Positions 6,633 to 56,945 are shown, counted from the first letter of the stretch. The stretch is 64,000 nt of DNA from Octopus sinensis (GCF_006345805.1 NC_043001.1:9672001-9736000); one strand, 5' to 3'. The notes: generated from the letters alone by a model not told the origin. Numbers and translations: made by a program.

Positions 6633-7299
6633 CTGATGTTAGGTTAAGACTTTAAATTGTAGAAATACCGGATCCAATTATGTCAAGAGTTAAAATGGTA
6701 GCTGTGTCGGATTAAATGGTAGATATGCCGGATTAAAAGATTTACAGTTATTCATTACATCTAGTGTTTTCAAATCCAACCATCCTATAGTAGACGTCTT
6801 CCATATTTGGCGCAATAATTAAAATAATATCAATTAGTCAGCTAATGTTATTTTCCCCTCAAAGCGTAATTATTTTTAATTAAGTTTTTGATGCTCGTCT
6901 AATTACGTCGATTTTGTGTCTATACCGCATCTTGCCATTATATCTAAATCACCCAAACAACAATGGATTTAGAAATCTGTGTTTTCTTGTTTTGTTGTTT
7001 TTTTCTGAAGCCAGGAAGAAATTCGAAAGATTACAACTACTTTCAGCTCAATTCTCAAACCATTTCTAAAAGAAGTAGCGATGAGAATACCTGTGATGTG
7101 CTTATCATACCATTATGCACAAGAACATACATTTTCACCCAAGATCCAGTAATTGTCTTTGCTTAAATCTGGTGACTGATGATGATCCTAAACTCGACAG
7201 AGTGGCACACTTGAATTTAAGCTCCAGGCCTGCTCTTATTGATGGACTTATGATCAAAGTCTTTATTTACATTATTTACATTTGTCGAATATTTGTCCT

Positions 7300-7344
7300 C
7301 ACAACGTTTCGGCTGATATACCCTCCAGCCTTCATCAGGTGTCT
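7300..7344 (-). ncRNA. Minimal type-I hammerhead ribozyme motif (Penelope-type) in a ~130-bp cassette (7262-7388)
   Basis: Minus strand AGACAC-CUGAUGA-A-GGCUG-gagggtatat-CAGCC-GAAAC-GU-U-GUG: canonical core, 5-bp stem II, palindromic AACGUU at stem III, CAC/GUG stem I. Confidence 0.7.
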
Positions 7345-7534
7345 TGGGAAATTTCAAACCTTGGCTTTGTTATCTCATTTTCCCTAATGTATATACATGC
7401 ATGCTAATACAAGATCCATGTTAGACTCCTCACTCGTATCACTGTCGAACCAAGAGTTTGACTACGATCTGTCCATAGCACTTACTTAGCGTTGCCTGCC
7501 ACTCTTTGGGTCTTCTAGACCAATATCTCTCATG

Positions 7535-7569
<35 letters not shown>

Positions 7570-7599
7570 GTTAAACCTCGCTAAGATAAATATTTCAAT

Positions 7600-7662
7600 C
7601 ACTTGAAGATTGACTGTAACTCGAATTTTTACGAATTGGACAGCCATGAAACGATCGTAGTG
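7600..7662 (+). ncRNA. Degenerate type-I hammerhead ribozyme motif in a TA-flanked cassette (~7570-7790)
   Basis: CAC-UUGAAGA-U-UGACUGU...ACAGCCA-U-GAAAC-GAUC-GUA-GUG: palindromic GAUC loop III, GUA cleavage triplet, CAC/GUG stem I; C3 replaced by U. Confidence 0.6.
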
Positions 7663-7789
7663 TTATACTCATTATCTTTTTTTAATAATTTTGATATATA
7701 TTTAAAATAATATAAATTAATTAATCTTATGTATTGGCTTAAGTTTTTCATTGTATGATTTGCCTAATACTGGTTTTATCTCTAATTTA

Positions 7790-7794
7790 ATATA

Positions 7795-7846
<52 letters not shown>

Positions 7847-7849
7847 GTG

Positions 7850-7931
<82 letters not shown>

Positions 7932-8061
7932 GTATATATATGTATATGTATATATATATACATATATGTATACATATATATATGTATATAATATATGTAT
8001 ACATATATATATGTATATATATATATATTATGTATATATATATATATATATATAGTATATA

Positions 8062-8107
<46 letters not shown>

Positions 8108-8135
8108 ATGTATGTATGTATATATGTATGTATGT
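7790..8135. repeat. (TA)n/(TATG)n microsatellite
   Basis: Direct reading. Confidence 0.95.
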
Positions 8136-8490
8136 GCAAGACCCTGCCTCAGTAAAACTGGACTCAAGAGTCATCTTCGTAGTCATAAAGCGAGACAGAT
8201 GAGTGACAACCTGGCCACTGGTGGTGGTGGTACACACCATACTAATCATATCTGTCGGGCATGTGGAAGAGAGTGTAATTCGGCAGGAGGACTTAAATGA
8301 CATGCAAAGGTACATGAAGCCCAGTTACAACTACAGCCGGCTTTTTACCGGTAAAGGTTGTAGTTGCCAATTCTGTACAAGACATTGTAGATCTTTGGCT
8401 GGGCTAAAAAGTCACATTCGATCACAGCACCAGTAACAGTTAAGCTTCGTGCAATGGCCATACTCGACAACGAGGGGGCAGCCATCATGT
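8128..8490 (+). pseudogene. 5'-truncated 3' end of an RTE-type LINE encoding three C2H2 zinc fingers plus a short 3'UTR
   Basis: [66 protein letters not shown] at 8298-8300 (likely from CGA), frameshift in the T-run near 8342-8347, stop at 8434-8436, then GGCCATACTCGACAACGAGG and a TATG-type tail. Confidence 0.7.
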
Positions 8491-53650: not shown

Positions 53651-53708
53651 TATACATATTATTTATTACTATTATTTAACTGAATGCCATGCATCCATTT
53701 CCCAGTAA

Positions 53709-53744
<36 letters not shown>

Positions 53745-54201
53745 AAAACGGACGCTAAATGACGATGATGATATATATACATATATATATATAAATATGT
53801 GTGTGTGTATTGTAAAGTTCACTCTCAGTTTGAAGTCCAAAATGTCTAGCAGTAGACCACACACTTCGTTTGTTTCTCTTCACATGAAATTTATTCCATT
53901 CTTTGAACTTTCATGTTTTTATTTTGCCTCTACAGACTATCGTGTGTTTAGTCAGTTTGCTTAGCTGTGGCATTCAGAAGTTGTCTTCCCAACAACATGG
54001 TTCCAGGTTCAGTCCCACTTCACGGCACCTTGAGCAAATGTTTTCTACTATAGCCTTGGGCCAACCAATGCCTTGTGAGATTTGGTAGACAGAAACTGAA
54101 AGAAGCCTGTCATATATATATATATATATATATATTCACCGGGATAGATCGCTAACCACTAAACCATTTTCTATTTTCTCTCCTTGCTTATTTCTGTGTT
54201 C

Positions 54202-54237
54202 CTCTCTGTTGAAGAGCATAGGCTCGAAACGTAAAAG
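54202..54237 (+). ncRNA. Hammerhead-like motif with CUGUUGA core in a TA-flanked cassette (54136-54325)
   Basis: CUCU-CUGUUGA-A-GAGC-auag-GCUC-GAAAC-GU-A-AAAG. Confidence 0.55.
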
Positions 54238-54320
54238 ACTTTCTCATTTCCCGAGCGTTAAACTAATACACCTGCTCGTTGTTTACGCACCCTTCTTCGT
54301 CTTTTGTTTTTTGTTAATTC

Positions 54321-54367
<47 letters not shown>

Positions 54368-54510
54368 CTTCCTTCCTGAGCATCCAATAATACTATATTT
54401 GTTCCACGTCCTCGCGTTGTTGTGTTTTCTCTTTGTGTTTTCATGTTTGGATTAACTTTATATATATATATATGTATGTATATGTATGTATGTATGTGTG
54501 TGTGTATATG

Positions 54511-54585
54511 TTTGAAACTGTGACCTGTTCACTGACAAAAGGATGCAGCATGGAATTTTGTCAATGAACAGGTCACAGTTTCAAA
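54511..54585. repeat. Hairpin with a 30-bp stem (1 mismatch) and a 15-nt loop
   Basis: TTTGAAACTGTGACCTGTTCACTGACAAAA / TTTTGTCAATGAACAGGTCACAGTTTCAAA. Confidence 0.9.
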
Positions 54586-54899
54586 ACAGCAAAAATTTTT
54601 TGATACAAATTATGTTTAAATGTTGAAGTGAATGGAACGGTTTTTGTGTGTGTTTCTTAAACGGCTTCTAAACACCTTCCACTCTGCAATAGTAAAGATG
54701 TTATTTCTAGAGAAGCAGGAATCTAACCTAGTTCGGATGTGCATTTACAGAGGGAGAATGATTTTGTTGATAAGTATATTTAGCTTTTTGTAGAGATGAT
54801 GAAATGAGGGTCACAAAGGTCGTGTCACACAGACACCCACACACACCAGGCATTCCATTGAGTAACTTTTCTCTGTCTGCTTGTCTGTCTGACTCTACA

Positions 54900-55372
54900 C
54901 TTCCAACTCCTTCTCTCTTCTTCTATGTCTTCCTATTTCTCTTCTTGAGTCTCTCTCTCTCTCTCTCTCTCTGTATTTCCCTTCCTCTTCCTTTCTCTCT
55001 CTTTCTATTTCTCTCGCTGTCTCTCTCTCTCTCTTCTAATTTCTCTCCCTGTCTCTCTCTATCTCTCTTCTAATTTCTCTCCCTGTCTCTCTCTTTCTTT
55101 CTTTCTCTCTTAGTCTTATCATATCTCCCCTCTCCCTTTCTTTTCCTTCTCTTGCCTCTCTATTCCTCTCTCCCTCCTCTCTCTCTTTTTTCTCTCCCTC
55201 TATTTTTCTTTCTTTCTCTCCCTATCTTTTTCCTCTCCTCTCTCTCTTTCTCTTTTTCTTTCTTTCTTTCACTCTTTCTATCTCTCCCTCTATTTTCTAT
55301 TTCTCTCTCTCCTCTCTCTCCCTCATCTCTTCCTCCTCCCTCCCTCTCTCTCCTTTTTTCTCCCCCCCCCCA
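54900..55372. repeat. Long polypyrimidine (CT-rich) tract
   Basis: Direct reading. Confidence 0.9.
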
Positions 55373-55907
55373 GACTCACATGACACTCATTTCACACATA
55401 CTCCAACCAACTTCGAATTCTCAGCCATCTCACACGAGATGTCTTCCTCGGAAAAGTATGGAAGCTTTTTCCTTTCCCCCTGATTCAGTTTTAGCAATTA
55501 TGCAAGAGGACGCAAATTAGAGACTAAACACTGCATTTTCTGTCACTCTTTGACATCTGCTGCCGTTCAAAGCCAGTTATAAGCTTGTAATATAATTATA
55601 TTATATTGACATATTAGCATGTGATTAACGAATGATTACATGAACACAGGTAGAAAATTGTTGCAATGCTGATAGAATAAATGGAATATAGCAGAACAAA
55701 GGAAAAATTTGTATTTCAAAGAGGTGAGATTTGACATATCTGGCAGGAGGACTTTTCTTTGGGGAAAAAGAAAAAAAAAATTATTTTAAAATGTTTTTGT
55801 TTTCTTTTTCCCTTCTTCTTGAGCTTTGCTACTCGTAATGTCAGTGTTCACATTTTGTGGCACATGAATGCAGTATTTTATGAATTATATGAAATAATTT
55901 AACAAAT

Positions 55908-56070
55908 AGGTGCAGGAGTGGCTGTGTGGTAAGTAGCTTGCTTACCAACCACATGGTTCCGGGTTCAGTCCCACTGCATAGCACCTTGGGCAAGTGTCTT
56001 CTGCTATAGCCTCAGGCCGACCATAGCCTTGTGAGTGGATTTGGTAGATGGAAACTGAAAGAAGCCTGTC

Positions 56071-56111
<41 letters not shown>

Positions 56112-56945
56112 GGGAAGCTTTATGAAAATAAACAAAAGACGAAGGCAGGTGGAGTACAAACAAACAATTGTATTAGTATGGCGCTCAGAATATAAATAAA
56201 ACAAGTCTTTTACGTTTCGAGCCTACGCTCTTCAACAGAAAGATACACAGAAAAGAAACACGGAGAGAAACAAGGAGAGAAACAAAATGCGTGCAGAAGC
56301 TAGCGATTCTATATATATATATATATATATATATCATCATCATCATCATCGTTTAACGTCCGTTCTCCATGCTAGCATGGGTTGGACGGTTCAACCGGGG
56401 ATCTGGGAAGCCAGAAGGCTGCACCAGGCTCCAGTCTTATCTGGCAATGTTTCTACAGCTGGATGCCCTTCCTAACGCCAACCACTCCGTGAGTGTAGTG
56501 GGTGCCTTTTACGTGCCACCTGCACAGGTGCCAGGCGAGGCTGGCAACGGCCACGGTCGGATTGGTGTATTTTATGTGCCACCGGCACGGAAGCCAGTCG
56601 AGGCGGTGCTGGCATCGGCCACGAGTCGGATGGTGCTTTTTACGTACCCCCAGACCAGGGATCCTGGCTGGTTCAATTCGATTTCGATTTCGCTTGCCCC
56701 ATGCATTATGTGCGTGTGCGTATGTTTTGTGTGTCTGTGGTTGTACCCCCAACATCGCTTGACAACCGATGCTGGTGTGTTTACTTCCCCCGTAACTTAG
56801 CGGTTCAGCAAAAGAAACCGATAGAATAAGTACTAGGCTTACAAATAATAATACCTGGGGTCGATTTGCTCGACTAAAGCCGGTGCTCCAGAATGGCCAC
56901 AGTCAAATGACTGAAACATGTAAAAGAGAGAGTAAAGAGTAAATA
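55908..56945 (+). mobile_element. SINE family A split by two nested insertions in its internal (TA)n
   Basis: A head 55908-56075; hammerhead cassette 56107-56310; family D 56333-56700; A tail 56715-56945. Confidence 0.85.
56206..56243 (-). ncRNA. Hammerhead-like motif with CUGUUGA core and intact stems
   Basis: Minus strand UCUUU-CUGUUGA-A-GAGC-guag-GCUC-GAAAC-GU-A-AAAGA: 5-bp stem I, 4-bp stem II, palindromic ACGU. Confidence 0.6.

Follow-up and report, generated by a model that had tools for sequence, protein, structure and literature searches.

The genome of Octopus sinensis (2.72 Gb) contains small cassettes with minimal hammerhead ribozyme motifs, and we analysed a 64,000-nt stretch of it that is rich in (TA)n microsatellites (NC_043001.1:9672001-9736000, called the window). 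An initial annotation had described six such motifs from four sequence families and assigned them to separate derivatives of Penelope-like elements (PLEs) lacking open reading frames (ORFs). All six motifs were found in place by reading the window, and the count of four families stands. We conclude, with a probability of about 0.8, that the cassettes are solo pseudo-long terminal repeats (pLTRs) of four ORF-bearing PLE families, and that the cassette at 7570-7790 is an exact intron-less pLTR, likely a dead-end copy of a spliced, capped leader. Longer copies of each family extend 5' into PLE coding sequence (remnants only in one of them, family E). Separate ORF-less families are unsupported, because minimal hammerheads, solo or inverted copies and (TA)n bias are already published. 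The 7570-7790 cassette belongs to family D, a Hydra-clade element; A and B are sister subfamilies of a Neptune-type element, C is of Penelope/Poseidon type and E is an old Hydra-like element (Table 1).

Upstream extension showed that some family D copies have the first 20 nt of the window cassette split from the rest by about 900 nt. The insert starts with GTATGT, ends with TTTTAG in 22 of 24 introns and is 622-1138 nt long. The window copy joins the intron flanks exactly at 7589/7590, with breakpoints fixed at GT and AG so that no sliding is possible. Since precisely the parent's 0.9-kb intron is missing from the cassette, a spliced, capped RNA was its likely template, even though PLEs have a reputation for intron retention. 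Exact counts on the shared 20-nt arm in exon 2 give 585 spliced junctions versus 178 intron acceptors, and those on the donor side 501 spliced versus 52 unspliced; the first ratio is the fairer one because long introns drop out through truncation.

The 5' ends also separate the two kinds of copies. The pattern-search samples used here (spliced copies, families A and B, 3' ends) are the first matches along contig C1 and the unspliced sample is the first 30 of 52 matches, so neither is a random draw, and loci from DNA searches are the best matches only. Of 30 spliced copies, 29 reach no more than 20 nt above the pattern and begin at an initiator-like start or slightly inside it, whereas 26 of 30 intron-bearing copies reach at least 136 nt above the pattern. 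The upper edge of the spliced copies reads TTTT-AGTTCATT, which resembles an initiator; the window cassette begins about 8 nt inside this putative transcription start. In 30 of 31 intron-bearing copies a T precedes AGTTCATT, and the full set of 62 rows with a non-T base there comprises 42 G, 15 A and 5 C. Such an excess of G is expected if the reverse transcriptase (RT) copies the cap, as is established for other retroelements.

In the exon 2 tree, spliced (29) and intron-bearing (24) copies are intermixed, with 17 changes versus 17.8 for shuffled labels. Six of the 30 intron loci were left out (four with no acceptor found, two with no 3' motif or duplicated), as was one of the 30 spliced loci. 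None of the bootstrap trees (0%) has a single change, and supported branches force at least four, the bootstrap being not fully settled. The intermixing implies that intron loss recurred in each subfamily and that the short form is not its own lineage, contrary to the ORF-less lineage first envisaged.

On another reading, all cassettes are ordinary random 5' truncations of 3' ends, and the intron-less junction goes back to a single DNA deletion, or a small number of them, in master elements. Many copies are indeed plain truncations and AT-rich sequence favours deletions. However, such deletions would have to stop exactly at GT and AG, to recur on at least four well-supported occasions in the tree, and to leave 5' ends that cluster just above the junction in intron-less copies only, with an excess of G before the start. 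We consider this explanation improbable.

Another possibility is that the cassettes are independent ORF-less, retrozyme-like families replicating via hammerhead-cut circular RNAs. Short copies are far commoner than long ones and have defined ends, PLE pLTRs have been proposed as the source of animal retrozymes (bioRxiv 10.64898/2026.07.22.740005), and direct neighbours within 1.5 kb are seen at 4 of 30 loci in family A and at 2 of 30 in family B. Against this, short copies are dispersed singles or head-to-head pairs and not tandem arrays; spliced D loci have an inverted partner in 16 of 30 cases and a direct neighbour in none of 30, and they lie scattered among intron-bearing ones. The spliced leader also lacks the intron and everything above the start site. 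Copy ends miss the cut site: the 5' ends of family A show no footprint of hammerhead cleavage, only 4 of 50 lying downstream of the cut, at +7 to +43. This explanation is thus very improbable overall and largely refuted for family D.

Solo pLTRs and copies of a spliced leader could both arise by a route that we propose by analogy to Penelope and Poseidon_Ac. A promoter within the pLTR would start an RNA polymerase II transcript at the initiator-like site, and the leader intron would be spliced out. The RT-endonuclease would then nick (TA)n, with cDNA synthesis beginning internally at the pLTR end or in an optional tail. A start in the 3' pLTR of the RNA would give ordinary 5'-truncated copies, mostly intron-bearing; a start in the 5' pLTR would give a copy of 200-320 nt that runs to the cap, without the intron and often with one extra G. 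Spliced copies are likely repeated by-products of such internal starts on the sense mRNA leader, and their templates were uncut by the hammerhead, because the copies span the cut site. We regard as evenly balanced the wider proposal that the RT start site sets intron retention, rather than an antisense or unspliced template, that the spliced D leaders map the start and prove a sense mRNA, that permuted D copies (17 of 21, described below) record cleavage in vivo, and that a Neptune lineage of 14,000 copies prospers with a U at core position 6 (A6U).

Several observations weigh against our interpretation. The G excess was counted among non-T rows, T-preceded copies being uncounted genome-wide, and 4 of 10 inspected G-preceded copies could draw their G from microhomology with the inverted partner. 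Among 99 family D 3' ends, 64 are without hammerhead, 10 have hammerhead and intron and 8 are spliced; plain truncation therefore makes most copies, and this sample does not show the 3:1 spliced excess. We found no full-length D element with a spliced 5' pLTR, and the readable ORF-linked ones kept the intron end (L399, L397). A few spliced copies (L082, L182, L259) extend upstream of the start, indicating that the 3' pLTR is sometimes spliced too. No RNA data set was listed as containing the 7570 cassette. Contigs from four runs, presumed to be RNA, gave no splice joint on an intron-bearing D copy, a comparison that decides nothing because exon 1 is shorter than 31 nt and variants are lost from contigs. 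As read from genomic sequence, splice, start site and cap are each likely. Beyond family D, the ORF link of family E is weak (decayed remnants, two on the same strand and two inverted, among 30 loci), that of family B runs only via family A, and the clade names of A/B and C are provisional, being read from motifs.

Family D has 1484 first-look candidates, and its exact 3' end pattern occurs 4455 times (reversed control 0). Longer copies reach frames with DKT, CTCRDKTKC (CxCx5C) and CYLC..E..LLN..CRH (L264 and 7 of 20 long loci). They match the published signature of the Hydra clade, namely DKT, a CxCx5C linker, CxxC/CxH around E and N, and insertion in (TA)n (PMC8557442), with RWK reading KWK. 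Two intron-bearing D loci have no Rfam family at gathering score. The hammerhead of the window copy has stem I CAC/GUG, core UUGAAGA, a long stem II closed by U.U, stem III ACGAUCGU and triplet GUA. Its C3U change (7603(+)) is private, as C3 is kept in 27 of the 30 closest copies. This motif has no unpaired extra nucleotide, a feature that the initial annotation had extended to all six; U.U closes stem II in 14 of 30 relatives and A-U in 13.

Some observations on family D stand apart from the splicing question. Among copies with post-tail sequence (L416-L436), 17 of 21 are permuted, with ORF 5' sequence ending at +330 to +440 from the cut joined to the pLTR at about +4 to +81. None of these 21 extends above the hammerhead cut, edges being approximate in AT-rich sequence. 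The permuted copies, which are perhaps not independent, could record cleavage and template jumping, or microhomology deletions. At locus L231 (C9488:76400-82200), 2.68 kb without an ORF separates two intron-bearing D 3' ends that have inverted partners, a layout that may reflect local duplication or an assembly repeat. Two comparisons of 5' ends with the cut site in family D were set aside: the alignment-based one is unusable in AT-rich sequence and the landmark-based one is confounded by AT expansions of subfamilies. Extension from L065 proved misleading, yet it exposed the fixed 5' end.

The Neptune-type element accounts for the two cassettes near 54-56 kb. Family A has 968 first-look candidates; exact patterns occur 1110 times for its hammerhead, 4314 times for the B-type hammerhead and 2987 times for the family A 3' end (reversed controls 0). 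Copies of family A have a fixed 3' end and a variable 5' end, and longer ones continue through a pyrimidine-rich 3' untranslated region (UTR) into a GIY-YIG frame. The initial annotation was right to recognize the hammerheads as of PLE type. Of 30 endonuclease loci of family A, 27 have the cassette downstream in the same orientation, and 17 of 20 family C loci likewise have it downstream of a GIY-YIG frame. The family A frames have RT motifs, a CSRPRCxTC linker and the CCHH residues of the GIY-YIG domain. A CX2-5CxxC linker ahead of a CCHH GIY-YIG domain, together with microsatellite bias, marks the Neptune clade, to which families A and B are presumed to belong by resemblance; Nematis also has a linker. 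One copy (L266) is full-length with the cassette at both ends. The window cassette opens 12 nt within the putative start, (tc)AGATCGCC, and closes with the fixed 3' end CCCGTT. A pile-up at the start site is seen here with no intron: 15 of 50 3'-anchored copies begin within 11 nt of the L266 start, 21 further up, 10 between start and cut, and the rest below the cut. Longer B-type copies resemble, by eye, the 3' UTR of family A, and no ORF specific to B was traced.

Both Neptune-type hammerheads have stem II GAGC/GCUC and stem III ACGU; stem I is UCUUU/AAAGA in the family A motif, and the family B motif has triplet GUA and one stem I mismatch. An A at core position 6 is kept in families C, D and E and is absent as a rule in A/B, where exact patterns genome-wide give U in 14,677 (reversed control 0), A in 166 and C or G in 380. 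Position 7 is variable (12 A, 10 C, 5 T and 3 G; n=30). Changes at A6 lower hammerhead activity, as reported in PMC3088659 for A6C, and our literature search did not find an A6U hammerhead in print. Two copies of a common repeat that resembles a short interspersed element (SINE) (about 53960-54112 and 55915-56073) end at the (TA)n beside cassettes B and A, so the microsatellites there are possibly SINE tails that were targeted later.

Family C has 2186 first-look candidates. Its window motif has the core CUGAUGA-A...GAAACGUU, stem II GGCUG/CAGCC, stem III ACGU and triplet GUU. The published PLE minimal consensus, CUGANGAH G..C GAAAN-palindrome-NUH (PMC4209133), is matched by 7338(-), the only window motif with the full consensus core, and by 27 of 30 family C cores. 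A GIY-YIG frame lies upstream in L100, without the CSRPRCxTC linker of family A, and RT frames are found further up. The 5' edge of the window copy near 7390 was set by eye. The 3' UTR of family C (L100, L105, L115, about 1330-1450) contains a stretch resembling a tRNA, with motifs similar to the A and B boxes and then (AAT)n, which in many copies sits between the endonuclease stop and the pLTR. ARAGORN calls no tRNA gene in this stretch, which is possibly a captured SINE head.

The inverted pair at 26 kb belongs to family E (305 first-look candidates, 72-92% identity). Both motifs are damaged, one with GAAA changed to GAAU and the other with CUGA changed to CAGA (core CAGAUGA) and a shortened stem III. 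Relatives in families D and E keep CUGANGA, and stem II of family E has compensatory pairs, GUGG/CCAC and AUGG/CCAU, as read from tables. Hydra-like endonuclease remnants lie upstream in L317 and L323 (tblastn E-values 2.5e-4 and 0.005). Just past the pair is an inverted repeat (26208-26303) with a (TG)/(TA)/(CA) centre, which resembles a miniature inverted-repeat transposable element.

Pfam RVT_1 is above cut-off for families A and C and GIY-YIG is below it (E-values 0.001-0.005); Pfam missed the Hydra RT and one Neptune frame. A single ORF that joins RT to a C-terminal GIY-YIG domain, as expected of endonuclease-bearing PLEs, precedes the repeat in A, C and D, and all coding copies that were read are interrupted by stops or frameshifts. 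Further hallmarks of PLEs are the two pLTRs of L266, the optional tail (about 90 nt, in 38 of 99 family D ends) and the inverted 5'-truncated partner. The TA preference first proposed holds for two families: 40 of 49 copies of A and 93 of 99 copies of D have (TA)5 after the 3' end (background 5% in 30 nt). Near the 3' ends of families E and C (background 9% in 70 nt) it occurs in 7 of 30 and 1 of 38 copies, respectively, and family C is not TA-biased. Three window cassettes have (TA)n at either edge, in agreement with the initial description (Table 1). The elements' own sequence past the 3' end in A and D is ATATAT or TATAATAT, which may pair with the nicked (TA)n target.

Table 1. Features of the window, with predicted hammerhead cut sites (positions counted from the first nucleotide)
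Feature	Position	Strand	Basis
Family C 5'-truncated 3' end (pLTR), Penelope/Poseidon-type PLE	7263..7390	-	BLAST to natural copy L273 over 7263-7364
Family C minimal type-I hammerhead, predicted cut after 7303	7300..7341	-	Descriptor, published consensus
(TA)7, 5' side of family D cassette	7555..7568	.	Repeat scan
Family D intron-less solo pLTR, Hydra-clade PLE	7570..7790	+	Junction 7589/7590; Hydra RT/endonuclease frames upstream in longer copies
Family D hammerhead, predicted cut after 7659	7600..7662	+	Sequence, family state
(TA)n target, 3' side of family D cassette	7796..8098	.	Repeat scan
Family E old Hydra-like PLE 3' end, core 26062-26056, GAAA box broken	25934..26065	-	BLAST to L306
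Family E inverted partner, head-to-head	26076..26136	+	Sequence, relatives with same inverted layout
(TA)11, 5' side of family B cassette	54113..54134	.	Repeat scan
Family B solo pLTR, sister subfamily of Neptune-type element	54135..54324	+	76-78% to both L266 pLTRs
Family B hammerhead, CUGUUGA-A at 54206-54213	54202..54237	+	Sequence, family state
(TA)20, 3' side of family B cassette	54325..54364	.	Repeat scan
(TA)17, 3' side of family A cassette	56074..56107	.	Repeat scan
Family A solo pLTR, Neptune-type PLE	56108..56309	-	98% to 5' pLTR of full-length L266
Family A hammerhead, A6U core 56238-56232, predicted cut after 56211	56206..56243	-	Descriptor scan
(TA)12, 5' side of family A cassette	56310..56333	.	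Repeat scan

Among the six motifs, a palindromic stem III is found in four (ACGU in three, ACGAUCGU in one) and the stem II pairs GGCUG/CAGCC, GAGC/GCUC and GUGG/CCAC are confirmed, all as first described. Stems stay paired though their sequences differ between families, as read from tables. The shared CUGANGA-like core with GAAAC is intact in 7338(-); it is altered by A6U in 56238(-) and 54206(+) and by C3U in 7603(+), and both 26 kb motifs are broken. A strict type-I descriptor finds one site in the window, 7338(-), whereas 40 block-wise dinucleotide shuffles average 0.025. Allowing a single core mismatch gives three sites versus 0.175, the gains being 56238(-) and 49442(-); the latter is AT-rich and looks like chance. 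A relaxed scan, the check suggested by the initial annotation, detected 197 distinct motifs in 605 fetched loci, which had been chosen for carrying these repeats, versus 0 in reversed sequence. These loci also hold further minimal hammerhead families, with U3-A8 covariant cores (TTGAAAA, six motifs) or a longer palindromic stem III (CGCG, CAATTG, CATATG).

Solo copies are for the most part inert, and in the window five of the six motifs deviate from the consensus core. The fit of 7338(-) to the consensus could suggest self-cleaving RNAs used in place by the host, but three of the five departures are private damage, single minimal motifs were uncleaved in vitro according to PMC4209133, and A6 changes lower activity (PMC3088659). 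No host gene was found around the motifs, though none was sought. Such host use is extremely improbable.

Rfam gave no hammerhead match in three narrow scans, with cassette 54135-54324 outside those three, and a scan of the window gave none among the matches listed (150 of 281). The matches listed are to microRNAs only and are driven by microsatellites; with zero hammerhead family among them, Rfam appears blind to these motifs. Minimum-energy folds gave self-complementary dimers instead of the catalytic fold and were set aside. Neither the window nor eight loci yielded a tRNA gene with ARAGORN, and tblastn with Neptune-type queries only found no PLE coding remnant inside the window. Two tandem repeats lie elsewhere in the window: a 65-nt unit with a tRNA-like look at 38860-39215 (5.5 copies, 90% matches) and a minisatellite of 26-nt units at 60837-61217 (about 14.6 copies).

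The motifs resemble the pLTR hammerheads that Cervera and de la Pena (2014, PMC4209133) describe in metazoan PLEs, which likewise have type-I order, an extra nucleotide lying after position 9 and before 10.1 and a palindromic helix III. That account also includes mostly single motifs of truncated elements, solo or in opposite-strand pairs, and U3-A8 covariant families. Relative to the forms described there, the Neptune-type family differs by its fixed U6 and free position 7, and family D by the lack of the extra nucleotide. The (TA)n bias of Neptune and Hydra is published. The Hydra clade of PMC8557442 (Craig et al. 2021), including the cephalopod family Hydra-1_Obim, shares with family D the signature motifs and a 3'-proximal hammerhead with a longer helix III. 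Hydra-1_Obim is listed there at 2507 bp and without pLTR, and its protein and hammerhead are unlike those of family D. Family D carries pLTRs and a tail about 90 nt long, and its intron of 0.6-1.1 kb stops 10 nt short of helix I. Short motifs of A, D and E were not found in the supplement of that paper, although line breaks might have masked them.

Penelope of Drosophila virilis (Schostak et al. 2008, PMC2377424) has, like family D, its start site and a 5' UTR intron within the pLTR, an arrangement also noted in PMC8557442. Its intron ends at hammerhead helix I and most transcripts are spliced (PMC2377424, PMC4209133). Its genomic copies are described as keeping the intron, whereas at the family D junction intron-less copies outnumber intron-bearing ones by about 3:1. 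Poseidon_Ac of Anolis (Frangieh et al. 2024, PMC11167929) likewise has two internal RT starts bounding an optional tail, and AT-rich targets; in vitro it inserts without hammerhead cleavage, with uncut RNA as template. The RT start of Poseidon_Ac is reported as non-homologous to the target, whereas the sequence past the 3' end in A and D is TA-like. Animal non-LTR retrozymes (PMC7229834; bioRxiv 10.64898/2026.07.22.740005) are similarly short, ORF-less and PLE-linked, with type-I hammerheads. They are described as head-to-tail repeats of 150-450 nt with canonical hammerheads and circular RNAs (PMC7229834), unlike the cassettes here, which carry minimal motifs, lie singly and dispersed or in inverted pairs, and have ORF-bearing parents continuous with the unit. 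Spliced or intron-less PLE copies were not found in the openly searchable literature, Repbase and Dfam being outside the scope of that search.

Solo minimal hammerheads from truncated PLEs in (TA)n are thus mostly known biology, and what appears to be new is the intron-less, start-site-bounded copies of family D. Why PLEs keep introns, and whether the template is sense or antisense, is left open in the published accounts (PMC3846280, PMC8557442), the former leaving an antisense or unspliced template undecided as the cause. Family D offers a natural experiment, with hundreds of intron-less copies that end at the likely cap site and span the cut; given that end, their source can only be spliced sense RNA. 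Neat-ended short hammerhead cassettes are, by the same token, not necessarily retrozymes. Template polarity, start site and the timing of ribozyme cleavage become testable from genome sequence and simple reverse transcription PCR.

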